A DNA stretch of 64,000 nucleotides from a phage. How positions within the stretch are numbered: position 1 is the stretch's first letter; each line of letters begins with the position of its first letter. Below, in pieces: positions 22,049 through 41,768 of the stretch. Position numbers and translations under genes: made by a program. The stretch lies in assembly GCA_017822615.1 (NCBI GenBank), contig GCA_017822615.1_4530.1; one strand, given 5' to 3'. The notes beneath the pieces were generated by a model. The model worked only from the letters and a program-made list of their open reading frames with translations. It was not told the origin of the DNA and made no database searches.

Positions 22049-22054
22049 TAAATG

Positions 22055-22080
22055 AGCCTCCTTCGGGAGGCTATTTTATA
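22055..22080 (+). terminator. rho-independent terminator
   Basis: AGCCTCC-ttcg-GGAGGCT then ATTTTAT. Confidence 0.6.
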
Positions 22081-22090
22081 GGAGAGACTT

Positions 22091-22441
22091 ATGAGTAATT
22101 TTGATGAAATTCAAGAACTTGTTTGGGATTTATCTGGTGATGTGGATTACGTTTTAGATTATCTTTCAAAAGTTTACCCTGGGGTAAGCGTTATGATCGT
22201 GACCAAAGATCCAATTAATTTGCCTCCTAATGTGGTAGCTTGTTGTGGGAGTGGTTCAGGGGAAGTGGAGCCTGTATCCCGTTGGGAATTAACTAAAGCT
22301 GTTTCAAAACGAAACGGTGAAGTTTTGAATATTGATATCGAGCAAATATGGACTTCTCCAGCAGCTAAATGGAATGATCCGAATGGTTGGGACTTGTTCT
22401 TCTGGGATAATGAAACTGATGATGAGGTATTTTTAAAATGA
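22091..22441 (+). CDS. hypothetical protein
   Basis: 116 aa. Confidence 0.45.
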   Translation: MSNFDEIQELVWDLSGDVDYVLDYLSKVYPGVSVMIVTKDPINLPPNVVACCGSGSGEVEPVSRWELTKAVSKRNGEVLNIDIEQIWTSPAAKWNDPNGWDLFFWDNETDDEVFLK

Positions 22442-22683
22442 AATACTTGTTGGTTGTGTTTGAAAATATTTGTTTTGCAATAGGGTTGTTTGTTGTAATT
22501 TTTGTATTGACAAGCGTAATCAACGGCAGTAAAGTGAGTTTATACCGAGATGGAGAGCAACTTTATTGCTTCTCTGGAGATTTCAAACACAGATGTATTA
22601 ATAGCCAAAACGAGGAAAGCAAATATGAAAAAACTAGCCCTGATTTTAATTGGTTGTATCTTTTTAACAGCTTGCGAGGATGA
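22438..22683 (+). CDS. possible small membrane protein (overlaps lipoprotein gene start)
   Basis: 81 aa, hydrophobic N-terminus; contains an internal promoter-like TTGACA-N17-TAAAGT at 22507-22535. Confidence 0.3.
   Translation: MKYLLVVFENICFAIGLFVVIFVLTSVINGSKVSLYRDGEQLYCFSGDFKHRCINSQNEESKYEKTSPDFNWLYLFNSLRG
22507..22535 (+). promoter_or_regulatory. sigma70-like promoter upstream of lipoprotein gene
   Basis: TTGACA N17 TAAAGT. Confidence 0.35.
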
Positions 22684-23062
22684 AACAAATCCTGCACAAT
22701 ACCAACAACCTCCTCAACAATACGCTCAACAAGGATCTGACGGAGATACAACTATTATCAACAATGGTGGCGGTTCTAGTAGTAGCGGTGTTGGTGAGTT
22801 TGCTACAGGTATGTTGTTAGGGCATATGATGAGTGGCGGTAGTAATCGTAGCAGTGGGGATTATAACGATAACAGAACGATTATTAATAAGCATTATAAT
22901 ACACCTAAACCGAAAACTAATTTTTATAGTAAGCCTAAACAAGAGATAAAAACTTATGAAAAGCCGAGACAAACTTTTAAAACAAATAGTAGCTATACAA
23001 CTCGTAAATCTTACAATAGCCCTTTAAGTAAAAAGAGTTCATCTCGTAGCAAGCGACGTTAA
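22625..23062 (+). CDS. lipoprotein (Q/S/N-rich)
   Basis: start moved to ATG 22625; MKKLALILIGCIFLTAC lipobox; low-complexity C-terminus. Confidence 0.55.
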   Translation: MKKLALILIGCIFLTACEDETNPAQYQQPPQQYAQQGSDGDTTIINNGGGSSSSGVGEFATGMLLGHMMSGGSNRSSGDYNDNRTIINKHYNTPKPKTNFYSKPKQEIKTYEKPRQTFKTNSSYTTRKSYNSPLSKKSSSRSKRR

Positions 23063-23076
23063 TAAGGAGAAAAACA

Positions 23077-23670
23077 ATGACAATTTCTATTCGTACTTCC
23101 ATCGTAGGTGTTAAAAGGTTGCCTAATGCTTTGCAAATCACACGCGCTTTGAGGGATACATTCTCTGCTGTGGACGAGCATAAGATGCTTGATAATCTTT
23201 CAAATTGGCCCTATTTCCATTATTTTAAAAATGAAGATGACGAGTTTATAGACGCTGTTTCTTATGGTTATGATTTCGGTAAGGAGGTTTCTGCTGAAGA
23301 ATTTGTAGCTATGGTGTTCCCAAACGGTTTGCCTACTCGCAGTAAACGTAAAAAAGGACCAAAAAACAAGAAACGTGCTACTAATAAAGCTACCATTTTC
23401 TTTACTGATGGCACACAATATACGATTAAAGATTTTGAAGAGGTATCTTATACAGCAGGTGGGAATCTTTCTTTCTACACCATCAAAAAACAAAACTCTA
23501 CGTTCAGCCATGTTTCTAACATGATTGAAATGTTAGTAGAAGATATTGAAAGCGTAGCTGTGTTAGGTATGCATAAAAGCTTTTTAATTACAAATATTTC
23601 AGATTTCAGTGCACGTTTATCTGGTCCTGATTTTGAAACCACGACCACGCATTTCACTTTTAAGGTGTAA
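23077..23670 (+). CDS. hypothetical protein
   Basis: 197 aa, basic patch SKRKKGPKNKKR. Confidence 0.45.
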   Translation: MTISIRTSIVGVKRLPNALQITRALRDTFSAVDEHKMLDNLSNWPYFHYFKNEDDEFIDAVSYGYDFGKEVSAEEFVAMVFPNGLPTRSKRKKGPKNKKRATNKATIFFTDGTQYTIKDFEEVSYTAGGNLSFYTIKKQNSTFSHVSNMIEMLVEDIESVAVLGMHKSFLITNISDFSARLSGPDFETTTTHFTFKV

Positions 23671-23673
23671 GTT

Positions 23674-24264
23674 ATGTATACCGAGAGAGACTTGCAACTC
23701 TTGTGGTGGGAAGTGATGCAGGAAATAAAAGAAGATTTTCCTGTTTACTACAACATGTTACGTGAAGCAGGATATAAAGCTTGTGTTAGAAACAAAGTGA
23801 ATAACTCTTTCGGTTGGTGCAACTACCGAGATAAAATTGTTGTTGTAAATTGGCACTTGCATAAGAACTCTACAAGAGATATGATCGTGGATACAATGAA
23901 GCACGAAATTGCTCATGCTATTGATGGTTGTATGGGTAAGTTTAGTAGACACGGTGCTCATTGGCAAAAACTGGCAGCAGAGTTAGGGGCTAATCCTAAA
24001 GCCACTTCCAAAGAGCCGTTGAACCACGAATATAAATATGTTCTTGTTCTGGTAGATAGGTTTGCGACAAGATGTGTTAGAGGTTATAATCGTAAACCTA
24101 ATCGCATGTACCCAGGTAAGCAACCTAATATGTGGTTGAAATCAGATAAAGAAGGGACCGAAGGAAAATTATGGTTGTATAAATGGGACGATTGGGTTAA
24201 AGTAGCTAAAGAGTACGGTGTTTCACCATATATAAGAGATGCAGAAGAGGAGAATGAAGAATGA
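23674..24264 (+). CDS. SprT-like zinc metallopeptidase
   Basis: HExxH motif in MKHEIAHAIDGC plus downstream His/Cys. Confidence 0.5.
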   Translation: MYTERDLQLLWWEVMQEIKEDFPVYYNMLREAGYKACVRNKVNNSFGWCNYRDKIVVVNWHLHKNSTRDMIVDTMKHEIAHAIDGCMGKFSRHGAHWQKLAAELGANPKATSKEPLNHEYKYVLVLVDRFATRCVRGYNRKPNRMYPGKQPNMWLKSDKEGTEGKLWLYKWDDWVKVAKEYGVSPYIRDAEEENEE

Positions 24265-25373
24265 CAAGTCCATTTTTAAAAGCAGCTACTGGCGGTCAGA
24301 AGAAGCCTGAAATGAGCGTATTTGCTGCAACAACAGATGCAAGTAAATCTGTATTCGCTCCAAGCGTGTTAGATGCCAGTCCTGTTTATGCACCAGCGGC
24401 ACCGCAAGAAGTTCCAGTTTTGCCTTCTATGACCCGACAAGAGATCGAAGAGATTGGGGCAGAGGCAGGAACAACCTTGCGTTCCTTGAATGCCGAGGTA
24501 TTAAAACATCAACGTAGTAATCAAGGCGATCAGATGAGTGAACGACTCACAGCTTTGATTAAACAGGCAAAACAACTTGATCCAAACTCTATTAAACAAA
24601 GCAAGGGTATTACTAAACTCATTAAAAAAGTTATGGGTATGAAAGAAGATCTGTTTGGGGAGTTTGATAATGTTAATAACCGTATTGAAGAGTTGGTAAA
24701 AAACCTTCAAATGGATATTCGCAAAGAAGAAGATTCCTTGGTATATCTTGAAAAGCTACATCAAGCTATTGGACAATATGCTGCAAGTTTGAACCGAGAT
24801 ATGCAGCTTCTAACAGCAACCTATGAAAAAGAAGAACAAGCTTTGGCTGCTCTTCCAGAAGATGCAGTAGAACAGCGACAAGTGATCCGAGATACTTTGG
24901 ATCTTCTGGAGATTCGTATTGCAGATTTAAAAGCATTGCGCCTACTGTGTGTCCAAATGGGACCGCGTGTACAAGGTATGCAAAAAGTTTCTGCAAGCTT
25001 AATGCGATCTGCGCGTAACATAGTAAATAATGTTATTCCTGCTTACTCTGCTAACTTCTCAATGTATATCGAGAGCTTACGTCAAATGAAAGCAGCAGAG
25101 ACGCAGAATAACGTTCTTGATGAATTTAACCTGGCAATTAAACTGGGTAGCGATCTTGCCACACAGAATCAGATCGAAGCAGCAGCACTGGCTAACCGTC
25201 AAGTGTTGGATATTGAAACTCTGCGTCACGATCAGGAAAACTTGGTTAAGATGTTGGAAGAAACTAACCGCATCAATACGGAAGCCCGTGCTGCTCGTGT
25301 TGATTATATTAATGAAGTTCAATCTTTGGAAGACGGGATGGTAGCTGCTGTGAAACGAGGGCTTGGTAAATGA
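24261..25373 (+). CDS. TelA-like (toxic anion resistance family) coiled-coil protein
   Basis: 370 aa largely helical; size, composition and ter-locus context suggest TelA; assignment by recollection only. Confidence 0.4.
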   Translation: MTSPFLKAATGGQKKPEMSVFAATTDASKSVFAPSVLDASPVYAPAAPQEVPVLPSMTRQEIEEIGAEAGTTLRSLNAEVLKHQRSNQGDQMSERLTALIKQAKQLDPNSIKQSKGITKLIKKVMGMKEDLFGEFDNVNNRIEELVKNLQMDIRKEEDSLVYLEKLHQAIGQYAASLNRDMQLLTATYEKEEQALAALPEDAVEQRQVIRDTLDLLEIRIADLKALRLLCVQMGPRVQGMQKVSASLMRSARNIVNNVIPAYSANFSMYIESLRQMKAAETQNNVLDEFNLAIKLGSDLATQNQIEAAALANRQVLDIETLRHDQENLVKMLEETNRINTEARAARVDYINEVQSLEDGMVAAVKRGLGK

Positions 25374-25570
25374 GAATCCGTATCTATATAATTGATGAGG
25401 ACATTGGTGTCCGTTATGATGACGAAAAACGATTCGCGCCGATGGGAGGCATATATCCCCCAAGTGTTCTAGCAGTTTGTCGTGATTGTTATATTTATGA
25501 AGGTTGTCGTAACTTCCGTAAATTCGAACTCCTTGCAGATATTGACTTCAATGAGGAGGAGGAGGAGTAA
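25370..25570 (+). CDS. hypothetical protein
   Basis: 66 aa, acidic C-terminus. Confidence 0.4.
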   Translation: MRIRIYIIDEDIGVRYDDEKRFAPMGGIYPPSVLAVCRDCYIYEGCRNFRKFELLADIDFNEEEEE

Positions 25571-25743
25571 TGAAAATATTACGAGTGAATATTGAAACTG
25601 CTTGGTGTGGATGCAATGAGGTTGTGGATATCGAAATTGAAGATGATATGTCTCAAGAGGATATAGAAGATCTTGCACACGAAACCTTTCAGGACTATTG
25701 TAATTACGGGTTCCATATTTTAGAGGAGGAAGAGGATGTTTAA
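25570..25743 (+). CDS. small hypothetical protein (57 aa)
   Basis: not in track; TAATG junction upstream and ATG overlap downstream. Confidence 0.35.
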   Translation: MKILRVNIETAWCGCNEVVDIEIEDDMSQEDIEDLAHETFQDYCNYGFHILEEEEDV

Positions 25744-25939
25744 CTACGATAACGACCCTAATATTATCCAGTTAACCCGACAAGAACTGATCACAATCAT
25801 TGAAGATGCTTTTATTGATGGCTGGAATACACAAGACAATGATTGGGGTGGACCCGAAGCTTTTCTGGAACATCATAAAGCTTATGGAGAATTTTGTGAA
25901 ACCACTGTAGCTCTTGATAATCTGAAGGAGGGTTTGTAA
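25736..25939 (+). CDS. hypothetical protein
   Basis: 67 aa. Confidence 0.4.
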   Translation: MFNYDNDPNIIQLTRQELITIIEDAFIDGWNTQDNDWGGPEAFLEHHKAYGEFCETTVALDNLKEGL

Positions 25940-26502
25940 TGGGTTGTTTTAGCTTTTTGTGCAAAGAATCGGGCAAAGCTGCCCTTTCTACTTCTTTCGA
26001 CGGATCACCTTGTTATCTCTTTCTTTTGAAGGACGGTGTTGTTATTGAAGAGATGTATGGCAACTATGATAGTTATGGTTGTGTTTTCTCTGGAAAGGAG
26101 GATGAAAATGGCGTTCGTGAACGGTTCGAATGGGCTATGGATTGGGGTAAGGTTTGTGATTTAATGCATTCCTCGAATCCAAGGGATGGTATCGCTATGG
26201 TGCTGGAAGAGTATTTTACAGGTGAAATCCCTACAGAACAATCTGACGGAGATCCTAACCAAGGTTGGGGTGATGGCGAAGAAGATCCAGATTGTTTTTT
26301 CAGCACAGAAAAGAATAAGTTTAAACGTGTTGACAACCCTTATCACAAAGTGCATAATACTCTCATTGAAACAGAAGATGACAAGATGGAAATTGAAGAA
26401 GATGATCCTCTTGTAACACTTCCTATAAGTGAGTTACAAAAGATCACTAAGGAAGCTTACGATTTGGGCTTCAAAATTGGTAGAGGAGGTATGCGTGTTT
26501 AG
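25939..26502 (+). CDS. acidic hypothetical protein
   Basis: 187 aa. Confidence 0.45.
   Translation: MGCFSFLCKESGKAALSTSFDGSPCYLFLLKDGVVIEEMYGNYDSYGCVFSGKEDENGVRERFEWAMDWGKVCDLMHSSNPRDGIAMVLEEYFTGEIPTEQSDGDPNQGWGDGEEDPDCFFSTEKNKFKRVDNPYHKVHNTLIETEDDKMEIEEDDPLVTLPISELQKITKEAYDLGFKIGRGGMRV
26330..26358 (+). promoter_or_regulatory. sigma70-like promoter (internal to preceding gene)
   Basis: TTGACA (26330-26335) N17 CATAAT (26353-26358). Confidence 0.4.
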
Positions 26503-26773
26503 ATTCAATATTCAAGAAGAAAAAAGTCAGGATTTACCTATTGCTTTCGAAGATCTTGACGTAGGGGCCACATTCATGTATTATGATGCCTATGAAGACG
26601 CAGGGTTGGATACCTACCGTAACTTGGTGTTCATTAAAAATTCCACAAACAGTGCGATTTGTATTAATGGATCACTAGCACAACGAGGCTATACTCATTG
26701 CATCCCACCAGATACAAATATGGTGGAAGTAGATTTAGAAGTTACCAATATTACACTTAAGAAGGAGAAATAA
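26495..26773 (+). CDS. small protein, paralog A of a duplicated family
   Basis: GTG start after GAGGAGG; shares FxIxEEK...DLDVGxTFxY...GLD...EVxLxVTxITLK with 27795..28064. Confidence 0.45.
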   Translation: MFRFNIQEEKSQDLPIAFEDLDVGATFMYYDAYEDAGLDTYRNLVFIKNSTNSAICINGSLAQRGYTHCIPPDTNMVEVDLEVTNITLKKEK

Positions 26774-26774
26774 T

Positions 26775-27569
26775 ATGTCCGAGAAAATCAGCCTGAAAAA
26801 ACGTCAAGAAAACCTTGCTTTCTCTCTGAAAAAGAATAAGAACCTGAATGAAGGTAAGATTGTTCTTCGTGTAGCATGTGCTCTAGATATTTCTGGTAGT
26901 ATGCATGGTCTATATTCTAGTGGGGTAGTGAGTGATTTTGTAGGTAAACTGCTTCCTTTTGGTATGCTGTTCGACGATAATCAACAAATTGATATGTGGG
27001 CCTTCAATACGAGTTCCCAAGAGCTTACTCCAGCAACAGCAGACGTTTACGATGACTATGTTGGTAAATGTATGCGTAATGTTCGTATCGGAGGTGGAAC
27101 AAATTACGCCCCTGTAATGGCAGATATCTACGATGAGTATTTTGGCACTGTTACCAAATATATTACCACTAAACAAGTGGTACAAGAGGAGGCTCCAAAG
27201 AAAGGCTTCTTTAATCGTCTGCTTGGTAAAACTGAAACAGTATCTGTAGAGCGTGAAAAGGTTGTAGCTGTGTCTGAACCAGGTGCTGACGTTACCCCTG
27301 GTGTTGTATTCTTCCAGACGGATGGTGAGAATGGTGATCCTAGTGCTGTTCGTCGTCTTATTGAAGAGAATAAGAATAAACCTATTTATTGGTTCATGGT
27401 TGGCGTTGGTAATGAGAAGTTTGGCTTCCTGAAAGAACTGGCAAATGCTTATGATAATGTTGGTTTTATTGGCATTAAAGATTTAGACTTGACAGATTCA
27501 GAGCTTTATGACAAACTCTTATCTGAAGAGTTCGGAGAGTGGGTTGTTAAAGTAGGTGCTAAAAAATGA
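26775..27569 (+). CDS. vWA-domain protein (TerY-like)
   Basis: MIDAS motif DISGSM with downstream GGTNYAP; N-terminus KISLKK...FSLKK resembles TerD N-terminus. Confidence 0.6.
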   Translation: MSEKISLKKRQENLAFSLKKNKNLNEGKIVLRVACALDISGSMHGLYSSGVVSDFVGKLLPFGMLFDDNQQIDMWAFNTSSQELTPATADVYDDYVGKCMRNVRIGGGTNYAPVMADIYDEYFGTVTKYITTKQVVQEEAPKKGFFNRLLGKTETVSVEREKVVAVSEPGADVTPGVVFFQTDGENGDPSAVRRLIEENKNKPIYWFMVGVGNEKFGFLKELANAYDNVGFIGIKDLDLTDSELYDKLLSEEFGEWVVKVGAKK

Positions 27570-27814
27570 TCGACGAGCTTGCCTCTCAAGTCATAGAAAA
27601 TTATTGGCGCGAGAGAGAAGCTTTCATTATGCGCAGTCTCAAAGAGTATTTCATTGGGACTGTGCGAATGGAAGATATTGTAAGTAGAGTAGAGATTCAT
27701 GTATGGCCTGATTATGAAGAATGGGTTGACAAAGAAAATGAAAATGCTATAATTCTTCGTATATACAAACCGGAGATAACATTAGGAGGAAGAAGTGTTA
27801 AACTTCGAAATTGA
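27566..27814 (+). CDS. hypothetical protein
   Basis: 82 aa, ATGA overlap. Confidence 0.4.
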   Translation: MIDELASQVIENYWREREAFIMRSLKEYFIGTVRMEDIVSRVEIHVWPDYEEWVDKENENAIILRIYKPEITLGGRSVKLRN

Positions 27815-28064
27815 TGAGCAAAAAGTAAATAAACGATGCCTTACCATTAAAGATTTGGATGTAGGAGATACTTTCGTCTATGAAAATGCATTTGACGAAA
27901 ATGGTTTAGACCTTAGTGAAATCATTGTTTATTTAAAAGTAGATGATGGGGAAAATGATTATTCTGCTGTAGAACTAAACCATCATGCACAATTAGTATC
28001 AATCCAAAACACATCTAAGCTTTTGGAAGTAGAATTGACTGTAACTGGTATTACACTTAAATAA
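27795..28064 (+). CDS. small protein, paralog B of a duplicated family
   Basis: GTG start after AGGAGG; see paralog A. Confidence 0.45.
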   Translation: MLNFEIDEQKVNKRCLTIKDLDVGDTFVYENAFDENGLDLSEIIVYLKVDDGENDYSAVELNHHAQLVSIQNTSKLLEVELTVTGITLK

Positions 28065-28079
28065 TAGAGGAGACAAAAG

Positions 28080-28682
28080 ATGACTGATAAAATTTCCCTG
28101 AAAAAAGGTTCTAGCGAAAAAATTTCCCTGAAGAAAGTTGCTCCGGCTCTGAAAGAACTGCGTCTGGAATTCTCTTGGAAATCTGATTCTAAACTGGATC
28201 TGGATGTAAGTGCACTGGTTTGTCGTCACAATGCCGCTGGCAATCCTGAAATGCTGTCTGCACGTCATCTGGTTTGCTATGCTAACAAGTTTGATCCTGA
28301 ACGTTCTACCTTCGCTGGTGACGATGTTCGTGATGGAACTGGCAGCATGGAGCAGATTGATATTACTCTGGCTAAAATCTCTCCTGATGCACAAGAGATT
28401 GCCTTTGTTCTGACCATTGAGGATGATACAGGTCTGAAACGTTTTGGTCATGCTTCTGAAGGTATGCTTAAAATCTTCGACTCCGAGCGCAATGTGGAAA
28501 TTCTGGATTTTGACTTCCTGGCTCCTGAAGTAGCTGGCAACACAATCTGCCACGTGGCTTCCCTGGTTCGTGAAGATGGAGAATGGAAGCTGAAAGCATA
28601 TGGTGTAGGTAAAGCTGGTCTGGATATTTGCGATGTGGTGATGGCCTTCGGTGGTAAAAAAGAATGGTATGAATGTCCATAA
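28080..28682 (+). CDS. terD: TerD-family protein
   Basis: 200 aa aligns end to end with canonical TerD: N-terminal ISLKKG..ISLKK, LDLDVSALV, GDDVRDGTG, DGEWKLKAYGVGKAGL. Confidence 0.85.
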   Translation: MTDKISLKKGSSEKISLKKVAPALKELRLEFSWKSDSKLDLDVSALVCRHNAAGNPEMLSARHLVCYANKFDPERSTFAGDDVRDGTGSMEQIDITLAKISPDAQEIAFVLTIEDDTGLKRFGHASEGMLKIFDSERNVEILDFDFLAPEVAGNTICHVASLVREDGEWKLKAYGVGKAGLDICDVVMAFGGKKEWYECP

Positions 28683-28698
28683 TAATTAACAAATGATT

Positions 28699-28718
28699 TT
28701 GAGGGGGAGAAGTCCCCC
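28699..28718 (+). terminator. GC-rich hairpin after terD (weak terminator)
   Basis: GAGGGGGA-gaag-TCCCCCTC; only TT following. Confidence 0.35.
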
Positions 28719-28781: not shown

Positions 28782-29588
28782 TTGCTGATAAAAAACTTTG
28801 TAACAGTTGCGTTACTATCCTTAACTGCTTTTACATTTACACCTGTTGTGGCGAAAGCCGAAGCTGCAAACGTAAAAACCGCTAAAGTAGTTCACAAATG
28901 TACAAAGCAATATAATGATAAAATTCTATTAGCTTGTGCAATTTACGCAGAAGGTCGCGGTCTGGGTAAAAAAGGAATGAATGCCGTTGGGAATGTGGTA
29001 ATCAACAGAAGAAATGATGCCTACTTCCCTAACACAGTCAAGGGAGTCTTGTTCCAGAAAGGGCAATTCTCATATGCGAAAACTTTTAACGTGACAGAGA
29101 AAGATAAGTGGCAGGAAGCAAAAGCAATAGCGGAGCGTTTACTTTATTTAGAGAAACATTTTCCTGAATTGCGGTCTGTTTTAGATGTTACTAAAGGTGC
29201 TCTATACTTCAAGAAACGGAATATAAGGACACACTGGGAGCGTGATATGCGTCTTGTTTATCGAGATAAAGTGCATGGTTTCTATCTACCAAAGGGAGTT
29301 AAAATGCAAGAAGATAATACTGTTGTTGTAGCAAGTTACCTGGTTGTCGGTCTTACCGAAGAGGACGTATACTACACCCGTAAACATTTGGAAGCATACG
29401 CTACTTTGTTTATGGAAGATGAAAAGGATGTAGATAAATATAGCATTGATATGATCAACGACAGTATTTATCCTTGTATGGTTCTTAAAGTAGATGCTGT
29501 GCTGTGGGAGCGTTTTGCAAGGACTCATGATGCTGTAGAATGCTCCGCAGTAATGTCTCAAAACAACATTTTAGGGGAGATTCACTGA
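28782..29588 (+). CDS. cell-wall hydrolase (SleB/CwlJ-like) with N-terminal signal/SAR segment
   Basis: TTG start after AAGGAGG; hydrophobic N-terminus then LLACAIYAEGRG...VGNVVINRR...QKGQFSY matching the SleB-type hydrolase core. Confidence 0.5.
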   Translation: MLIKNFVTVALLSLTAFTFTPVVAKAEAANVKTAKVVHKCTKQYNDKILLACAIYAEGRGLGKKGMNAVGNVVINRRNDAYFPNTVKGVLFQKGQFSYAKTFNVTEKDKWQEAKAIAERLLYLEKHFPELRSVLDVTKGALYFKKRNIRTHWERDMRLVYRDKVHGFYLPKGVKMQEDNTVVVASYLVVGLTEEDVYYTRKHLEAYATLFMEDEKDVDKYSIDMINDSIYPCMVLKVDAVLWERFARTHDAVECSAVMSQNNILGEIH

Positions 29589-30003: not shown

Positions 30004-30567
30004 ATGATTTATTATATTACTCCCTATCTGACAGGAAATATCGGCAAGGCTATCAATGAAGCTATTGCCGTTCTTCCAGATGATAGTTGGGTGTGCTTAA
30101 GAGATACCGATACAATGTTCCTCCTGCCTGATCAACCATCTATGCTTGAAGAGCTTATTATGTCAAACCCGCCTTTTGATGTAATAGGTGCAACTTGTAA
30201 CAGGTTAGGTAGTGGTTATCAGCTTTTCTCTAACCAAATTAACGATGATCCAAATATTCTAAACCATATAGAATATGCTAAGATTGCAAGAGAATATCAT
30301 AAAGTGAGTGTTGAAGAAGTTCCTTTCGGAACACCTCTGGCAGGTTTCTTTTTGCTTTTTAGAAAATCATTGTGGAATGAAATTCCTTTCGAAGAAAAAT
30401 CTATCCAATTCGACCTAATTTTCTCTCGCACTTTACATGAAAAAGGAAAAAGGTTAGGATTGATGCGGGGAATGTATCTGTTTCACATTTACAGATTAGG
30501 TCAAACAAATCCTCAACGGTCTATACATCATTTATTACACTGTCACGATCACAGTAAAACTATCTAG
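30004..30567 (+). CDS. putative glycosyltransferase
   Basis: 187 aa with DTD acidic motif; weak. Confidence 0.3.
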   Translation: MIYYITPYLTGNIGKAINEAIAVLPDDSWVCLRDTDTMFLLPDQPSMLEELIMSNPPFDVIGATCNRLGSGYQLFSNQINDDPNILNHIEYAKIAREYHKVSVEEVPFGTPLAGFFLLFRKSLWNEIPFEEKSIQFDLIFSRTLHEKGKRLGLMRGMYLFHIYRLGQTNPQRSIHHLLHCHDHSKTI

Positions 30568-30575
30568 GAGAGAAA

Positions 30576-31259
30576 ATGGAAAATATTAAAATCGGAGTGG
30601 GTGTTATCACTGTAGGTGTCCGTCCACTTAAAGACTATCTTGTAACAGATCCACATGCAGATTTTCGAGTATTCAACGATCCAGATCGTAAAGGTGTAGC
30701 TTACGCCAGGAATGAACTTATGCACCAGTTTTATGAAGAAGGTTATGATTATTGGTTTATTTTTGACGACGATTGCTACCCAATCATGGAGGGATGGGAA
30801 ACATATTTTGTAGATCAAGCTGTCTCTGGAGGATGGGATTTCTTTGGTATGCCGGAGTATTTCAAAGATAAAGTTGTTGGGAGTAAAGGAGAAGTTATTC
30901 TCTGGGAACTTGCAATGTGTCAATTTGCAATGTATTCTCGTGCCGTTGTTGAGAAGATGGGTTATTTCCGCCCTTACACTCACGGCTATGGTTTTGAAGA
31001 TGCTGAATGGGTACACCGTTTGAAAGCTGCTGGTTTGAATCAGGGCATTCAGGCAATACCTTGTCCACTTCGTATCATGGCTTATATCCACCCAGACGAT
31101 GTTTTTGGAAACAATCCTATGCCTTTTGCTAATCTGACAAAAGAAGAGAAAGAAGCTGCTATTGGCATTAACTGGGAAGAATATAAAGCGTCTTTAGAAG
31201 ATATTAAAAATGGGAAAATCCGAATTTCTTATGAGGAGGCACTGGCACATGTCAAATAA
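30576..31259 (+). CDS. glycosyltransferase, GT-A (family 2-like)
   Basis: GVAYARN and FIFDDDCYP (DxD) motifs. Confidence 0.5.
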   Translation: MENIKIGVGVITVGVRPLKDYLVTDPHADFRVFNDPDRKGVAYARNELMHQFYEEGYDYWFIFDDDCYPIMEGWETYFVDQAVSGGWDFFGMPEYFKDKVVGSKGEVILWELAMCQFAMYSRAVVEKMGYFRPYTHGYGFEDAEWVHRLKAAGLNQGIQAIPCPLRIMAYIHPDDVFGNNPMPFANLTKEEKEAAIGINWEEYKASLEDIKNGKIRISYEEALAHVK

Positions 31260-32196
31260 AAAATGGACTAAACTGAAAATTGATGCAAAACCTCACAGTG
31301 GTTGTGATTATCATCGTATTGTTATACCATTTAACAACAATAATTTTCAGCCTAAGAAAGATGTTGTCGTGTTTAACCGTATTCATTCTAAAGGGGCAGA
31401 ATATGTTCTGTCCCTGAAACGTCAAGGTGTTAAGATTGTTGTAGATTTAGATGATTTCTACCAACTTAATCCAGAACATTATTTAGCAAGTTTATATGAG
31501 TCAAACACTCATGCTATTGTAGCTATGGTTAAGCTTGCCGATGTGGTCATTGTGACTACGGAATATTTGGCATATAAGATCCGTCACTTAAATAGGAATG
31601 TTGTTGTGATCCGAAATGCACTTCCTTTTGATAGCGGACAATTCACTTTGTCAAATGATCGTTCATCCGGTACCCCTGTTGTATGGGCTGGCGGTGCTAG
31701 TCACGAACCCGATTTACGACTAGTCTCTAATACTTTCGATGATGAACTTCTTACTATTGCAGGATATGAAGCATCGCAGAGTATCACAGGGCAAGAGTGG
31801 ATTAAGATCCGTAGAAATTTACCAAATGCCAAATATAAAGCTGCTGTAAAAGATTTAGATAATTACATGAGTGTTTACGAAAGTCATGCTATTGCTATAG
31901 CTCCTTTGGTAGATAATGATTTTAATAATTGTAAAAGTAATCTCAAAATCCTTGAAGCTGGGGCAAAAGGTATTCCGATTGTTTGTTCTAAGGTATTACC
32001 TTATTTTAACCCTGTAGATGCTCGCGCTGTTGCTTATGCAGAGAATAAAGCAGAATGGCATTACGAAATTGTTAAGCTTCTTCGAAATCCGAACTATCGG
32101 GAAGATCGCGGCTTGTTCTTAGCGGAACATGTTCGAACACATTATAATCTGGCAGATGCAAACGAATTGCGACGCCAGGTTATTGAAAGTTTGTAG
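31249..32196 (+). CDS. glycosyltransferase (GT-B-like), paralog 1
   Basis: start moved to ATG 31249 after GAGGAGG; C-terminal NCKSNLKILEAGAKGIPIVCS. Confidence 0.5.
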   Translation: MSNKKWTKLKIDAKPHSGCDYHRIVIPFNNNNFQPKKDVVVFNRIHSKGAEYVLSLKRQGVKIVVDLDDFYQLNPEHYLASLYESNTHAIVAMVKLADVVIVTTEYLAYKIRHLNRNVVVIRNALPFDSGQFTLSNDRSSGTPVVWAGGASHEPDLRLVSNTFDDELLTIAGYEASQSITGQEWIKIRRNLPNAKYKAAVKDLDNYMSVYESHAIAIAPLVDNDFNNCKSNLKILEAGAKGIPIVCSKVLPYFNPVDARAVAYAENKAEWHYEIVKLLRNPNYREDRGLFLAEHVRTHYNLADANELRRQVIESL

Positions 32197-32203
32197 GTGA
32201 AGT

Positions 32204-33147
32204 ATGGGACAAATAATTCTTGACAATCGTAACGGAATCAATTATAGTGTCTGCGATTTCCATAGGGTAGTGCTGCCTTACTCAAGGCAGTTCTCTTCAC
32301 AACCTAAACACAACGTTTTCGTTTTTAACGGAGTGCCAACAAAAGGTAAAGAGGGCTTTTAGCCCTTAAAAACCTGGGCTTTAAAATGGTTATGGATTTG
32401 GATGACTCTTTAGTTATTCCAAAAGGACACATGTTAGAAGGTATTTTTGAATCAGGTATTCGTGAACATTTAAAATGGTTTTTAGAGCACAGTGATCTTG
32501 TTACAACTACGACACCTGCCTTGCAAGTTGAACTTTCACAATACAATGATAATGTGCACATAATCCCTAATGGACTTCCTTACGATGAAGGTCAATTTGT
32601 GTTGACCCGTGATCGCTACTCCAAAACTCCATTAGTCTGGGCTGGAAGTGAAACACATAAACAAGATTTGGCTATCTTGCCCGATTTTGGTAAAGATCTT
32701 ACAATATGTGGTTTTCGTAGGGATTCTGAAGTTTTAAGTAGTCGTGAATGGTCTTTAATCAGGGAAAATGTAGCACCAACTTGTGTTTATGAAGGTGTAA
32801 GACCATATGCCAACTACATGGAATCTTACGATGGTCATCAAATCAGTCTTGCACCATTGATCGATAACGTGTTTAATAATGCAAAAAGCAATCTTAAAAT
32901 TCTTGAGGCAGGTGCTAAGGGTTTACCTTTAATCTGCTCTCCTCGTGAGAATTATCATACACAAGAGTTTAAAGATTTGTTATTCTTTGCTGAAACACCT
33001 TCCGAGTGGAAAGATATTACGGAATACTTATTAAGTGCTCCCGATGTTTGCATGGAGAAAGGATTAGCATTAGCTAAGTATGTCAGGACTCATTATCACA
33101 TTGATGTGTTGAATGAGCGTCGTAGACTTTTATTTGAGGAGCTATAA
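32204..33147 (+). pseudogene. glycosyltransferase paralog 2, interrupted by an apparent -1 frameshift in a TTTT run
   Basis: 52-codon N-terminal ORF (32204-32362) aligns with paralog 1 N-terminus then hits TAG; C-terminal ORF from 32386 continues the alignment in the -1 frame; junction at GGC-TTTT-AG (32354-32362). Confidence 0.45.
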
Positions 33148-33425
33148 TGATTAACACTTTTGATTTTGAATACACCACTCGTAACGGGAAAGCCTTGGTC
33201 GTGGAGGTGGATTACTATTATGAAGAACCTAATCCACTTTCTCGTGAAAGCGATTGGGATTACCACGGAGGGCTTTTAATTGACGGTATTCGTTTTTATG
33301 AAGGATCTACAGAAGTTTTTGAAAAAGATTTAAATGTAACTGTAGCAGAAATTGCTTTCCAATTTAGAAAGCACATGGAAGAACTAGAAGCAGAATATAT
33401 GATGGAGACTAACGAACCATTTTAA
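33147..33425 (+). CDS. hypothetical protein
   Basis: 92 aa, ATGA overlap. Confidence 0.45.
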   Translation: MINTFDFEYTTRNGKALVVEVDYYYEEPNPLSRESDWDYHGGLLIDGIRFYEGSTEVFEKDLNVTVAEIAFQFRKHMEELEAEYMMETNEPF

Positions 33426-33437
33426 CAGGAGAACAAA

Positions 33438-35216
33438 GTGTCGCACATTATAACTAAATATGGATTTGATGTTGATCTTAGCAAGGAAGGGCATACAGGT
33501 TGTCCGCGCTGCATGAAAAATGGCAAGGATCGCTCTCGTAATAACCTGATGGTTTATGGATTAGATTCTAATGGAGAGCATAAAGGTGCTAAGTGCTTTG
33601 CGTGTGAATACACTATTCCTAGCGTAGAATGGTTACGAGAAAATGGTGAAGTTTTAGAAGAAGAGGAGGAGATTGTGGGTTCGGAATTTAATAAACAGAT
33701 TCATCGTAAAATTGTTCAAGAAACATCAACCAACCCACGTGGTTATCGAGGCATTAAAGAAAAAGTTTCATCTTTCTATGGTGTTCGTTATGAATACCGT
33801 CAGGAAGGGGATCAGATGGTAGTAGAAAGTTGTTTATATCCAACTACTATCGGTAAAGAATTGGTTGGTTTTAAGCGTCGTATTCATCCTAAAGATTTCA
33901 GTAAACCTATTGGTCAAGTAGGTAAAGATGTAGATCTTTTTGGACAAATTCGTTTTGCAGACCGTTCTCATACTGTGGTAATTACAGGTGGTGAACACGA
34001 TGCTCTGGCAGCTTATCAAATGCTGTCTGAAAACTTGGACAACAAATATGAACTTCCAGCAGTAGTTAGTGGCACAACTGGTGAAACCAGTATGTATAAA
34101 CAAGTTCAGGCACAATACCCTTTCTTTGAAAAATTTAAGAAGATTATTGTTTGCATGGATAATGACAAAGCAGGTAATGAGGCATTTGAAAATATTGTTA
34201 AGGTGCTGCCTCGTAACAAAGTCTACCGTATGCAGATGGATCTTAAGGATGCCAATCAGTATCTGGAAGAAGGTCGTGCAAAAGATTTCGTAAAAGCTTT
34301 TTGGAGTGCTCGTCTATACACCCCAGCAGGTGTTTATGCTTCTAATGTCTTGTATGAAGCTGCATTAGAATGCTTGGAATCCAAGATGATTACCTTGCCT
34401 CCTTTTATGCGTGTTGCTGCAAATATGCTGGGTGGTGGTTTAGTAGAGGAAGAGATTACAGTCATCCTGGCAAAGACCAGTATCGGTAAAACTTTGATGG
34501 TGAACGAGATCACCAAACATATTATTGTTGCGCACCCAGAACATACCCTAGGTATTCTGTCCTTGGAAGCAACTTATAAGAAATATTCTCGTAACCTGTT
34601 GTCCTCGTTCCTGCATATTCCTCTACACAGGAAAACACCGGAAGAGAAATTTCAAATCTTGGAAGAGAATAAAGAAAAAATCCTAGATTTTTACGAAAGA
34701 GAAGATGGATCACCACGTTTTTATGTGTGTGATGATCGTGGAGCAGATGTGGAGTCTATCAAAGAAAAAGTTTTGGAGATGATCATCTATTTTGGAGTAA
34801 CAATTCTTGTTATCGACCCTTATTCTGATTTGCTTTCTGGTATGGATGTTCAAGCCCAGGAAGAGTTAGCAACATGGTTGAAGCGCATCATGAAAGAGTA
34901 TGCTATAACTATTATCGTCATCTCACACGTTAAGAAATCGGCTAATGGTGGCAATGAACACTTAACAGAGGACGATGCAATGGGTAGTAGTTTCTTGGCT
35001 AAAGGTGCTGGTATTACCTTGGCTTTGGAACGAGATAAAGCCGCTGAAGACCCTGTAGAACGCAATACGACTCATTGCTTTATCCTAAAAAACCGTGAGT
35101 TCTCGGAAACTGGTCCGGCAGGGCAGTTTTACTATGACATTAGAACTGCAACTCTGCATGACAAAGAGCAGTATTTCAACAATCCTGCTAATTTGCCTAC
35201 GGATAGCAACTACTAA
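33438..35216 (+). CDS. bifunctional primase-helicase (Zn ribbon + TOPRIM + DnaB-like helicase)
   Basis: GTG start; CPRC...CFAC zinc ribbon, TOPRIM acidic motifs (GGEHD, CMDNDKAGNEA), Walker A AKTSIGKT, Walker B VLVIDPYSD. Confidence 0.8.
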   Translation: MSHIITKYGFDVDLSKEGHTGCPRCMKNGKDRSRNNLMVYGLDSNGEHKGAKCFACEYTIPSVEWLRENGEVLEEEEEIVGSEFNKQIHRKIVQETSTNPRGYRGIKEKVSSFYGVRYEYRQEGDQMVVESCLYPTTIGKELVGFKRRIHPKDFSKPIGQVGKDVDLFGQIRFADRSHTVVITGGEHDALAAYQMLSENLDNKYELPAVVSGTTGETSMYKQVQAQYPFFEKFKKIIVCMDNDKAGNEAFENIVKVLPRNKVYRMQMDLKDANQYLEEGRAKDFVKAFWSARLYTPAGVYASNVLYEAALECLESKMITLPPFMRVAANMLGGGLVEEEITVILAKTSIGKTLMVNEITKHIIVAHPEHTLGILSLEATYKKYSRNLLSSFLHIPLHRKTPEEKFQILEENKEKILDFYEREDGSPRFYVCDDRGADVESIKEKVLEMIIYFGVTILVIDPYSDLLSGMDVQAQEELATWLKRIMKEYAITIIVISHVKKSANGGNEHLTEDDAMGSSFLAKGAGITLALERDKAAEDPVERNTTHCFILKNREFSETGPAGQFYYDIRTATLHDKEQYFNNPANLPTDSNY

Positions 35217-35749: not shown

Positions 35750-36544
35750 TTGAGCAAGTTGAACACACTTGATCAATATTACACTAACCCCGCTTATGCG
35801 GGGTTCTTATGTGATAAGATCAAAGAAATTTTTGGAGAGGAAGCTAACTACGTAGAACCATCTGCGGGAGAAGGAGCTTTCTCTTCTTGTTTTAAAAACA
35901 TAACTTCTTTTGATATTGACCCTAAGTTTGAAGATTGTATTGAGGCAGATTTTTTAGCTCAATCTGTTGAGTCTGTTGGTAGTGTAACTGCTTTTGTCGG
36001 TAATCCTCCGTTTGGAAAAAATGCTAGTCTTGCCATTAAGTTCTTTAACCATTGTGCTGAAATGTTGGATAACGAAGGTGGTATTTGTTTTATCTTGCCT
36101 CGCACATTTCAAAAAATCTTTTTTGCACACAAACTAAATCCCCACATGCATCTTCTTTACGAAGAAGAATGTCCAAAAGGATCTTTTATTCTTCATGGAG
36201 AACCTTGGGATGTTCCTTGTGTATTCCAGATATGGATTAAACGCAACGAGAAGCGTTCTCCCGTTGTTTTAGGAGAGAATCGACTATTCGTATTAGGTAA
36301 CAGTAAAGACTACGATATAGCCGTTAGGAGAGCGGGAGCAAGTGCAGGTAAAGTGTTATCAGAAGAAGATTCTTTATCTGAAGCATCTACCTATTTTTTA
36401 AAAGCCTTGACTTCTGATCTTAAAACGCGTATCATTGAGGCTTACCCGTTACTTAAAGCTGAAGCTAGTAAAACTGCGGGAGTAAGAAGTTTAAGTTTAA
36501 AAGAACTTCAGTGGGTTCTGGAGAACATTAGAAAGGAGGAATAG
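35750..36544 (+). CDS. N6-adenine DNA methyltransferase (orphan)
   Basis: TTG start; SAM-binding EPSAGEGAF and catalytic NPPFG motif; no adjacent nuclease. Confidence 0.65.
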   Translation: MSKLNTLDQYYTNPAYAGFLCDKIKEIFGEEANYVEPSAGEGAFSSCFKNITSFDIDPKFEDCIEADFLAQSVESVGSVTAFVGNPPFGKNASLAIKFFNHCAEMLDNEGGICFILPRTFQKIFFAHKLNPHMHLLYEEECPKGSFILHGEPWDVPCVFQIWIKRNEKRSPVVLGENRLFVLGNSKDYDIAVRRAGASAGKVLSEEDSLSEASTYFLKALTSDLKTRIIEAYPLLKAEASKTAGVRSLSLKELQWVLENIRKEE

Positions 36545-39141
36545 TGAGTAAGTTTACATGGGATATTGAAGCAAACGGATTGTTGAATAATGACACTATT
36601 GATTATTTAGCTAGTCCTTATCGTCTCAAAGACACATTTCAAATGCACTGTATTGTCTTAGAGAACCATGAAACAGGAGAAATAGTAGCTTTCCACGATG
36701 GCCCTAAATACATCTTTGATGGGCGTCCTTATGAAGAGTCAGATGGTAAATACACATATGTTCTTAAAGAGTATGTGGCGCAAGATTACACGCATTTTCA
36801 ACTAAAAGATTTCCCAGACTTTATTAATCATGAAGGTTATTTTAAAGACAAGCCTGAATATCTGGTTGAAATGGCTGTGGCTCACAACGGTATCAACTAC
36901 GACTGGTTGGCTACAAAACTGTTTTATGGATTAGATTACAGTGTTAAATATAATACGTGGGGCAAAAATAAGGTAAAACTTATTGACTCCTTGATTTTGA
37001 GTAAAGTGTTAAACCCAGATCGAAAGATTGAGGGCAAATCAGGACATAGCTTGGCAGCACTTTCTCGAAAAGCAGGTGGTGATGTAAAAATAGATTTCCG
37101 TAAAGAGATTCCAGAAGAAGATCGATTTAAGACTTTTGCTGCGGATATGCTTTATTACTGTATCTATGACAACAAAGCCAATACTAGCGTATATAACTAC
37201 CTTATGGAAGAATGGGGTGATTATGATAAATGGGAAGGTCCATTTGAACTTGAACAACGTGTAGCAGACATTATCACACGCCAAGAACACCGTGGGTTTG
37301 CTTTTAACATGAAGCAAGCAGAAGAGAACCTTGCTTTTTTGGATGCAGAAATGGAGCGTCTTCGTTTACTCGTTGAGCCTATTTTGCCACCTAAACCAGC
37401 AACAAAAGGCTATCTTAAGGCTTTTATTCCACCTAAGTTGCAAATTAAAAAGAACTTAGAGCCAACTAACCATATGATCAATTTTGCTAAGAAACATGAT
37501 GGTCATTTGGAAGAGAGGGATGGCGATTGGTGGTTAGTTATGTTGGGGAAAGAGTGGAAACTGCCAGTTGCAGCAGATGAACCTCTATGTGATCCTAACA
37601 TCCCTGCAACATTGAACGATACAACCCATATTAAAAACTGGCTTGTAGGATTAGGTTGGGTACCGTCTGAATATAAAGATAAAGACTTAACTCTTAAATC
37701 TGGCACCAAGATTAAAAAGAGCGAGGAAGAACTTCAGAAAGGTATTCGAGCTTACGTTGAGCAAACTCTATCTTCTAATTTTTGTCAGGATCGTTGTGAT
37801 CATCTGGAGTGCACACCGGAAACCTTGGAAAGGAAGATTCAAGAGCGTATAGCAAAAGGTAAAGGTCGCGGTCTTAAAGTATTGACTAACCCATGTTTTA
37901 CCAAAGGTCAGGAAAAAGAAATCTGTCCTAACCTGCAAGCTTTGGGTGAGAAATTTCCTTATGCTACTCAGATTGTAGAATACTTAACGTATAAGCATCG
38001 TAGGAACTCTATTTTAGGTGGCGGTGCTGATTGGGAAGAAGATGAAGAAGATCAAGAATACGATAAAGGTTTCTTAGCCGCAGTAAGGGCGGATGGGCGT
38101 ATTCCTACACCAGCCGCTACATGTGATGCTGCAACCTCTCGTATGAAGCATAGGTCTGTAGCCAATATCCCTCGTGTCACATCTTTGTTTGGATGGGAGA
38201 TGCGTAACTTGTTTGGTGTAGAAGTTCCTAAATACTTCCAGATCGGTTATGACTTCGACTCTTTGGAAGCAAAGATTGAGTCGCATTATTGTTGGCGCTA
38301 CGAACCGGAGCCTCATGAATACTGTAACGCTCTCTTGTTAGAGAAGCCTAACGATGTTCATACCATGATGGCAAAACGTATTACAGATACTATTGGGCGT
38401 AAGTTTGAACGTAGTCCGGCGAAATCTGTTAAATACGGGATCACTTATGGTGCACAAGCAGACAAGGTTGCTAAAACAATTGGTAGCGATAAATACACAG
38501 GGCAACTGGTGTTCGATGCTTTCTGGGAAGCTGCATTCCCACTGGCGCGTCTTAAAGAACGTTTAAACGATTTCTGGGTTAAGACTGGTAAACAGTATGT
38601 TTTGGGTATTGACGGTCGTAAGGTTCCTACTCGTTCTGCTCACGCGATTCTTAACTCTCTGTTCCAAAGTGGTGGGGTTATCTGTGCTAAACGTGCAATG
38701 GTTATTTATGACGACATGATCGAAGAAGAAGGGCTAAGTGTTGACTTCTTTAAAGATGACTGGAAGAATAAAGACTTCGTGCAACAAATGATTGCATATC
38801 ACGATGAAGCCCAGCTTGAAGTTTCTCGTAACCTTGTAGAATTCAAATGGTTTTCACCTGAATCATTAGGTTGGAAGAAAGTAGACGATCCTGAAGAACA
38901 AAAGAAAATTGATAAAGAATGCCTTGCTAAAGTTGAAGAATGGAAGCATAATAAGGAAAAAGAGACAGGGCAAATTTGGGCTAACATTCATGAATCTCCC
39001 AAAGGTGGATGGTTTACAGCCTATAGTCGGGCAGGTGAACTTGCTGCTTTAGCTGTTACTAAGGCTGGAGAATTTTACAATCTTAATGTTCAGCTTACTG
39101 CCGGATATGATGTGGGTAACTCCTGGGCGTCCTGTCACTAG
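36544..39141 (+). CDS. DNA polymerase, family A, with 3'-5' exonuclease domain
   Basis: GTG start; Exo I WDIEANGL; polymerase motif B KSVKYGITYGA and motif C YHDEAQLEV. Confidence 0.85.
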   Translation: MSKFTWDIEANGLLNNDTIDYLASPYRLKDTFQMHCIVLENHETGEIVAFHDGPKYIFDGRPYEESDGKYTYVLKEYVAQDYTHFQLKDFPDFINHEGYFKDKPEYLVEMAVAHNGINYDWLATKLFYGLDYSVKYNTWGKNKVKLIDSLILSKVLNPDRKIEGKSGHSLAALSRKAGGDVKIDFRKEIPEEDRFKTFAADMLYYCIYDNKANTSVYNYLMEEWGDYDKWEGPFELEQRVADIITRQEHRGFAFNMKQAEENLAFLDAEMERLRLLVEPILPPKPATKGYLKAFIPPKLQIKKNLEPTNHMINFAKKHDGHLEERDGDWWLVMLGKEWKLPVAADEPLCDPNIPATLNDTTHIKNWLVGLGWVPSEYKDKDLTLKSGTKIKKSEEELQKGIRAYVEQTLSSNFCQDRCDHLECTPETLERKIQERIAKGKGRGLKVLTNPCFTKGQEKEICPNLQALGEKFPYATQIVEYLTYKHRRNSILGGGADWEEDEEDQEYDKGFLAAVRADGRIPTPAATCDAATSRMKHRSVANIPRVTSLFGWEMRNLFGVEVPKYFQIGYDFDSLEAKIESHYCWRYEPEPHEYCNALLLEKPNDVHTMMAKRITDTIGRKFERSPAKSVKYGITYGAQADKVAKTIGSDKYTGQLVFDAFWEAAFPLARLKERLNDFWVKTGKQYVLGIDGRKVPTRSAHAILNSLFQSGGVICAKRAMVIYDDMIEEEGLSVDFFKDDWKNKDFVQQMIAYHDEAQLEVSRNLVEFKWFSPESLGWKKVDDPEEQKKIDKECLAKVEEWKHNKEKETGQIWANIHESPKGGWFTAYSRAGELAALAVTKAGEFYNLNVQLTAGYDVGNSWASCH

Positions 39142-41705: not shown

Positions 41706-41730
41706 TCTTATTGATTTATAAAGAGTTTTT

Positions 41731-41768
41731 ATAAAAGAAAAGGGAACCTTTGCGGGTTCCCTTTTTAT
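41731..41768. terminator. bidirectional terminator at convergent junction
   Basis: GGGAACC-tttgcg-GGTTCCC flanked by A-run upstream and TTTTTATT downstream; between stop of ssb (+) and stop of 41768..44443 (-). Confidence 0.65.

Follow-up and report, generated by a model that had tools for sequence, protein, structure and literature searches.

Whether a glycosyltransferase gene that is interrupted by a one-base frameshift in a run of four thymines is an error of the sequence record, a dead gene, or a gene kept in use by some form of switching or recoding was the question raised by GT2 (positions 32204-33147). The gene lies in a stretch of phage DNA of 64,000 nt, hereafter the window (contig GCA_017822615.1_4530.1). 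The window belongs to a Phapecoctavirus, i.e., a phAPEC8-like myovirus (Stephanstirmvirinae) of E. coli, and its positions 31200-33200 shared 97-99.9% identity with 65 GenBank records. Relatives annotate GT2 as a 945-nt "glycosyltransferase" (e.g., YP_009986916 of phage ukendt). Together, GTa, GTb, GT1 and GT2 form a four-gene glycosyltransferase (GT) cluster at 30004-33147, of which GT2 is the last gene, and the cluster is located directly upstream of orf92 and a primase/helicase gene (Table 1).

Table 1. Positions of the glycosyltransferase cluster, of the two parts of GT2 and of the elements at the T-run, numbered from the first letter of the window.
Feature	Position	Strand	Details
GTa, small glycosyltransferase gene	30004-30567	+	
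GTb, small glycosyltransferase gene	30576-31259	+	
GT1, intact upstream paralog	31249-32196	+	315 aa; 41% identical to repaired GT2; PHROG 7162
GT2, N-terminal fragment	32204-32362	+	start ATG 32204; 52 codons and TAG 32360-32362
Short hairpin with the T-run as loop	32351-32367	+	RNA stem GAGGGCU/AGCCCUU; DNA stem AGGGCT/AGCCCT
T4 run, site of the one-base contraction	32357-32360	+	context GGC-TTTT-AGCCC
GT2, C-terminal part	32359-33147	+	-1 frame (= +2); homology from TTA 32359
orf92	33147-33425	+	start overlaps the GT2 stop (ATAATG); own strong Shine-Dalgarno sequence GAGGAG

The initial annotation had described an open frame of 52 codons from 32204 to TAG 32360-32362, and the sequence reads as described. 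The start codon of this frame is served by a good ribosome-binding site (AGGTGA, 5 nt ahead). A -1 shift at the T4 run joins the two halves of one glycosyltransferase gene, as had also been proposed: the -1 frame is open from 32350 to 33147 and reads LALKNLGFKMVMDLDD... The first ATG, GTG or TTG in this frame is ATG 32386, from which a product of 253 aa would start at residue 61 (strand beta3). This codon is the sole usable start of the C-terminal part, and no Shine-Dalgarno sequence was found ahead of it.

When the run length was changed in silico, T5 or T2 gave a single open frame of 314 codons, and neither T3 nor T6 gave an intact GT2 frame (T3 reads GFSP*). The state with three T, which the initial annotation took to be the intact one, is therefore wrong; five T (or two) are needed, and since T3 leaves the frame closed, the proposed refutation by resequencing that shows three T was mis-specified. 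The T5-repaired gene encodes 314 aa, the same protein as in phages ukendt and ESCO25, and the nucleotide sequence of GT2 equals that of ESCO25, ukendt and the closest metagenomic contig (the T5 twin described below), the missing T aside. Paralogy to the upstream gene was borne out as well. In BLASTP, repaired GT2 and GT1 shared 41% of 303 aligned aa (E = 1e-77), and no gap was needed at the repaired junction (KGKEGFLALKNLG / KGAEYVLSLKRQG); judged by this alignment score, the similarity is far above what chance would be expected to give.

Both GT2 and GT1 matched PHROG 7162 ("glycosyltransferase") over their full length (E = 6.5e-145 for GT2), and GT2 had a marginal match to Pfam PF13524 (Glyco_trans_1_2; 25.2 bits, cut-off 25). 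A PDB sequence search with GT2 returned spurious ankyrin-repeat matches only and was uninformative, so that a fold search was needed. An AF2 model of repaired GT2 built on 29 homologues (pLDDT 93.2, pTM 0.91) consisted of two Rossmann-like alpha/beta domains in GT-B topology. Foldseek comparison of this model with the PDB returned BshA, PglA, MshA, PimA, GtfC and SdgB at probability 1.00. These matches are mostly GT4-type enzymes, and by its modeled fold GT2 is a predicted GT-B (GT4-like) glycosyltransferase.

The two Rossmann-like domains are shared with the GT4-type enzymes BshA (3mbo), PglA (8dvz), MshA (3c4q), PimA (2gej) and GtfC (4w6q), to which the model aligned over its full length (E = 2e-9 to 1e-7, TM about 0.6). 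In contrast, sequence identity to these enzymes was only 11-16%, and GT2 is shorter (314 aa versus 330-400 aa). The N-terminal motif of GT2 is C-D-[YF]-H-R, whereas many GT4 enzymes have a Gly-rich loop instead. EX7E is the catalytic/donor-binding motif of GT4 enzymes. In the family alignment the C-terminal domain of GT2 has an invariant KSNLKxLE motif with E235, and eight positions past this residue stands L243, as opposed to the second Glu of EX7E, by sequence spacing alone.

The family-invariant residues H20, R21 and P25 all sit in the 52-aa N-terminal fragment. In the model the frameshift interrupts helix alpha2 (residues 48-57), which belongs to the N-terminal domain. A product begun at M61 would be devoid of beta1-alpha1-beta2-alpha2 of the N-terminal Rossmann-like domain as well as of H20, R21 and P25. 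From this we infer that the truncated GT2 products are inactive. The consequences for the next gene should be slight: because orf92 has a strong Shine-Dalgarno sequence of its own, little translational polarity is expected from the GT2 frameshift.

Among cultured phages the run has five T. A 75-nt query across the T-run matched 63 phage records in GenBank, of which 60 were listed. All 60 listed records span 76 nt, i.e., one base more, and none reaches 99% identity; the T4 form was absent from these 60 listed of the 63 matched cultured-phage records. Direct alignments to relatives show T5. When IMG/VR, JGI metagenomes and GTDB genomes were scanned for the pattern, every match had the 28-nt (T5) form; five further public contigs are likewise in frame with T5, and a collection of complete E. 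coli genomes contained no match to the site.

By tblastn, 57 records had an intact GT2 with at least 99% protein identity, and in phi92-like phages identity was about 76%. The gene was in one piece in 54 of the 55 Stephanstirmvirinae rows listed, the exception being ev052. Among intact copies pN/pS was 0.10 for GT2 and 0.03 for GT1, and these ratios indicate that intact GT2 copies are under purifying selection.

The interrupted form was present in other public assemblies, in which an exact-sequence lookup found the 253-aa truncated ORF to be called. The 253-aa product is also on record as NCBI protein HBB2900369.1, and the 52-aa ORF was not on record in the same type of lookup. Altogether, three T4 carriers were found besides the window: scaffold_31 of ENA ERZ28620348 (MUNK18-1, 125.6 kb); ENA ERZ27280766, with the same sequence as the Logan assembly of ERR2241901; and a 139.6-kb contig of Logan ERR11560491. 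The last of these, a third T4 background, was reached through an exact lookup of the GT1 protein, in which 24 of about 165 index blocks with the exact GT1 protein were examined; the T5 twin came from this lookup as well.

The contigs of ERZ28620348 and of ERZ27280766/ERR2241901 carry GGGCTTTTAGCCC, and 0.3-0.9% of their positions differ from the window. Compared with each other, two metagenome T4 carriers showed 134 substitutions and no indel columns in 15 kb, i.e., they are non-sister backgrounds. At the locus, 0-1 nt separate each of the four T4 carriers from the T5 twin, and none has further stops. Intact GT2 variants occurred on 61 and 114 contigs, versus 2-4 for the truncated form.

The T4 run is a real allele, recovered from independent read sets and by different assemblers, and it segregates in natural phage populations at low frequency. 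An earlier reading, that T4 is private to the window and hence an assembly error, had been drawn from GenBank, IMG/VR, JGI and GTDB and was overturned by the exact lookups of the 253-aa ORF and of GT1. This is a caution as to method: curated phage genomes alone pointed to a private error, and lookup of exact proteins in raw assemblies found the allele elsewhere. Additionally, one Logan contig (SRR27108373_893804), corresponding to window positions 32384-33627, was 100% identical to the window and starts 24 nt past the T-run. Its fragmentation could come from low coverage or from strain or allele heterogeneity in that sequencing run.

The distribution of indels around the site was compared in 13 genomes over 15 kb. 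In total, three isolated coding one-base indel columns were present: 29293 (window only), 31959 (GT1 of ESCO25 only) and 32356 (three non-sister genomes). The haplotypes of the T4 carriers diverge from 271 nt upstream of the site, and the 1.1 kb around the T-run (32086-33199) is identical in all T4 carriers and in many T5 genomes. GT2 was 100% identical in genomes that are about 1.7% apart nearby; VATA22 and the T5 twin, for example, have 255 substitutions in 15 kb and none in GT2. This pattern suggests that one GT2 allele may recently have spread by recombination or a gene-specific sweep. Since the identical 1.1-kb segment was evidently spread by recombination, a single origin of T4 is compatible with its several backgrounds; recurrent mutation and a single origin with recombination cannot be separated on the haplotype table. 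The T4 alleles have no secondary degeneration, so the lesion, if real, is young.

Loss of function in the GT1/GT2 pair was not confined to the T-run. In ESCO25, GT1 is frameshifted by G4 to G5 (31956-31959), in phAPEC8_ev052 GT2 is frameshifted by A5 to A4 (32883-32887), and in 10C3 GT2 carries a nonsense codon at position 176. The sister record of the last, 118_SA_NWU, has the same split annotation, and a sequencing error is an unlikely source of the nonsense substitution in 10C3. GTa, GTb and orf92 were intact in nine of nine genomes aligned. The recurrence of null alleles in GT1 and GT2 means that the GT-B pair is dispensable for propagation, yet it is strongly constrained where intact. Constraint in intact copies combined with recurrent loss marks an accessory function that is useful under some conditions.

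The reading that best fits these observations, held at a probability of roughly 0.55, is that GT2 is a normal, conserved GT-B gene minus one T, i.e., an unprogrammed loss of function in a very young pseudogene allele. One T would have been lost from the T5 run of GT2 to give T4. Ribosomes starting at ATG 32204 would produce a 52-residue peptide and halt at TAG 32360, and at best weak re-initiation at ATG 32386 might yield a 253-residue fragment, so that no active GT2 enzyme would be expected from the T4 allele. Null alleles of a conditionally dispensable accessory gene would keep arising or would spread by recombination. Pseudogenes formed by homopolymer indels in accessory phage genes are similar to GT2 in the one-base change of a short run, in the presence of intact orthologs nearly everywhere and in having no compensating feature. 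They resemble it also in dispensability for plaque formation, as indicated by the nulls in ESCO25, ev052 and 10C3. GT2 differs from them in that the identical lesion occurs on three backgrounds, a pattern beyond a single accident that recombination can nevertheless account for.

Whether the T4 run of the window itself was called correctly was judged from its near-identical T5 twin (k141_361462 of ENA ERZ27254724; 99.97% identity). In 20.9 kb the two differ by four substitutions and three one-base homopolymer contractions, and all three contractions are on the window side: G4 to G3 at 29293, T5 to T4 at 32356 and T6 to T5 at 41761. The T-run aside, there were no differences in 3.9 kb. For every 20-40 substitutions, natural pairs in the clade have about one indel column, and the chance of three indels with four substitutions is about 1e-3 (Poisson estimate). 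This excess of indels looks like homopolymer under-calling.

The contraction at 29293 left G3 (29293-29295, within 29286-29306), as opposed to the G4 shared by the 65 matching phage records and all metagenome contigs; the metagenome T4 carriers all show the normal G4 at this site. G3 removes the stop of a SleB-like cell-wall hydrolase (YLPKGS* becomes YLPKGVK-MQEDN...), and the hydrolase is thereby fused with the next 94-aa ORF into a window ORF of 268 aa (28782-29588). The fusion product was not on record in the exact-sequence lookup. Being private to the window, the contraction at 29293 must have arisen very recently if it is not an error. Intergenic terminator hairpins are also flanked by runs that vary by one base between strains, at 41716-41770 (AAAAGGGAACC...GGTTCCCTTTTT) and at 28697-28718 (GGGGGAGAAGTCCCCC). 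Such variants of T- and G/C-runs at intergenic terminators are natural homopolymer polymorphism and are noncoding.

If the phage really had T5 and the record dropped one T in base-calling, assembly or polishing, the interruption would be an artifact of this record. The three window-side contractions against only four substitutions, the private contraction at 29293 that is missing from every metagenome T4 carrier and from the 65 records, and the identity of GT2 to T5 relatives apart from the missing T all speak for such an under-call. Set against this, different assemblers recovered T4 from two or more other independent read sets; a random error would strike exactly the T-run of GT2 with a probability of only about 1-3% (an estimate from about 330 runs of at least four in 21 kb); the three altered runs are not the longest; and the terminator runs at 41725 and 41761 vary naturally between strains. 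On balance an under-call is a serious but doubtful alternative. For the window record, a real T4 is favored over an error at roughly 2:1, and T4 is probably genuine here and not mis-called; a miscall in the window could even coincide with a site that is truly polymorphic. Among the four options raised initially, the pseudogene thus gained from the recurrence of T4 in independent assemblies, and the sequencing indel is kept as a possibility for the window record only. Classical phase variation is not supported by the tract length of 5 nt; ON and OFF alleles do occur among close relatives, which leaves room for a weak form of switching. In its mildest version, the T5/T4 tract in the hairpin loop would slip recurrently and selection would alternate between reversible ON and OFF states. 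The presence of T4 on three local haplotypes, all of them with close T5 relatives, fits this, as do the T-run being the only coding one-base indel common to non-sister genomes (13 genomes, 15 kb), the otherwise pristine state of all T4 alleles, and the three additional independent null alleles in GT1/GT2 with GTa, GTb and orf92 intact in the genomes compared. Contingency loci have a hypermutable homopolymer, about 7-8 nt or more, in a coding region or promoter. Bacterial glycosyltransferase and methyltransferase genes of this kind (runs of at least 8 nt) share with GT2 the presence of ON and OFF lengths among close relatives, and a glycosyltransferase is likewise the target; the tract of GT2, however, is only 5 nt, far shorter than known contingency tracts, and is free of repeat enrichment. 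The homopolymer density of GT1/GT2 is ordinary, with a longest run of 6, and no enrichment was detected (5.3 runs of at least 5 per kb in GT2, versus 4.1 in the window and 5.6 in the primase gene). The identity of 32086-33199 in all carriers and many T5 genomes is explained equally well by a single origin with recombination. Reversible switching is therefore considered improbable. Were it true, the T5 loop run would be a mutational hot spot that reversibly toggles GT2, the GT1/GT2 pair would be inactivated preferentially in populations of Phapecoctavirus (null alleles of four kinds were seen), and these populations would be heritably heterogeneous in glycosylation, in a trade-off between hosts or defense systems.

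The two remaining readings would keep GT2 active from a T4 template, and both are very hard to sustain. Ribosomal -1 frameshifting or transcriptional slippage could in principle yield full-length GT2, given that the frames overlap at 32350-32362 and that a hairpin and a Shine-Dalgarno-like GAGGG are present at the site. The known -1 site of dnaX is A AAA AAG, and that of +1 shifting in prfB is CUU UGA with an upstream Shine-Dalgarno sequence; stimulators of programmed -1 shifts are hairpins or pseudoknots 5-9 nt downstream of the slip site, and transcriptional slippage needs a long A/T run of about 8-9 nt or more. The zero frame of GT2 is GAG GGC UUU UAG, which lacks an X XXY YYZ heptamer (G GGC UUU and C UUU UAG both depart from the pattern), and the required slip from UUU to CUU is mismatched at the first position. 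The hairpin encloses the T-run instead of lying 5-9 nt downstream, and the next predicted helix begins about 20 nt downstream of the T-run (overall z-score -2.3). A 4-nt run is too short for slippage of RNA polymerase. In the T4 allele GAGGG lies one base upstream of UUU-UAG (32351-32362), an arrangement that shares with prfB a Shine-Dalgarno-like element just upstream of a U-rich codon and a stop, and the resemblance is superficial: the slip favored by this geometry is +1, which is dead after two codons (GFSP*), whereas GT2 needs -1. The prfB-like geometry looks accidental from its sequence context, and the frameshifted arrangement is not conserved among relatives. Programmed -1 frameshifting, prfB-like +1 frameshifting and transcriptional slippage were each rejected on the sequence and the absence of conservation. 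The suggestion of a programmed frameshift in the initial annotation was accordingly dropped, as the 60 listed relatives (63 matched) and five other public contigs are in frame with T5 and the site has no heptamer and no correctly placed stimulator. Equally improbable is a functional split gene, in which the 52-aa and 253-aa products would be made separately and would form, or work as, an active enzyme. NCBI does annotate the 253-aa piece as a protein (HBB2900369.1), and the stop at 32362 lies 24 nt ahead of ATG 32386, so that re-initiation is conceivable. The break is nevertheless within helix alpha2, the fragment from M61 is devoid of the central strand beta1 and of H20/R21/P25, no Shine-Dalgarno sequence precedes ATG 32386, and few contigs carry the split form compared with the intact variants (2-4 versus 61 and 114).

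With GT2 read as a young pseudogene allele, the locus is best annotated as a frameshifted glycosyltransferase (pseudogene or sequence to verify), and not as two genes or as a recoding site. Nulls in this pair arise in nature and in culture, which makes functions in host interaction or defense evasion plausible for GT1 and GT2. The four-gene GT cluster of phAPEC8/phi92-like phages is strongly conserved, and a literature search found no function for it; the glycosyltransferases in PMC12753057 are host genes.

Several observations were made on the genes around the cluster and on the relatives. GTb, a small GT-A-like protein, had a sub-threshold match to the TET-associated glycosyltransferase family PF20691 (19 bits, cut-off 27.5) and a weak match to PHROG 842 "beta-glucosyl-HMC-alpha-glucosyltransferase" (E = 5e-6); these are hints that the GT cluster could target DNA bases. 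A Ter-like gene set at about 22000-28700 encodes TerC, TelA, a vWA-TerF-like protein and TerD (28080-28682), along with an SprT-like protein. This set is located just upstream of the SleB-like hydrolase and the GT cluster and is kept in all relatives.

Over the GT region, MG065650 (Campylobacter phage B15), OP562383 (Acinetobacter phage ABPW7) and MH252123 (Klebsiella phage ZCKP1) were 97-99.7% identical to the window, and their non-Escherichia host labels may be contamination or mislabelling. In one relative (Logan SRR28856265, contig L034, 18523-19115) a 197-aa gene was called as two ORFs of 105 and 92 aa. It is a homologue of ESCO25_00138, "tRNA nucleotidyltransferase/poly(A) polymerase", and from the gene calls only, this split would count as one more isolated frameshift among the relatives.

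The DNA polymerase gene (36544-39141) varied in length. It encodes 865 aa in the window and ESCO25; AV125, L018 and L033 have 1110 aa, L032 and L035 have 1189 aa, and in L030 the gene is split or codes for 941 aa. The alignments break at about 38290-38440, where an insertion of about 0.7-1 kb is present that is possibly intein- or homing-endonuclease-like.
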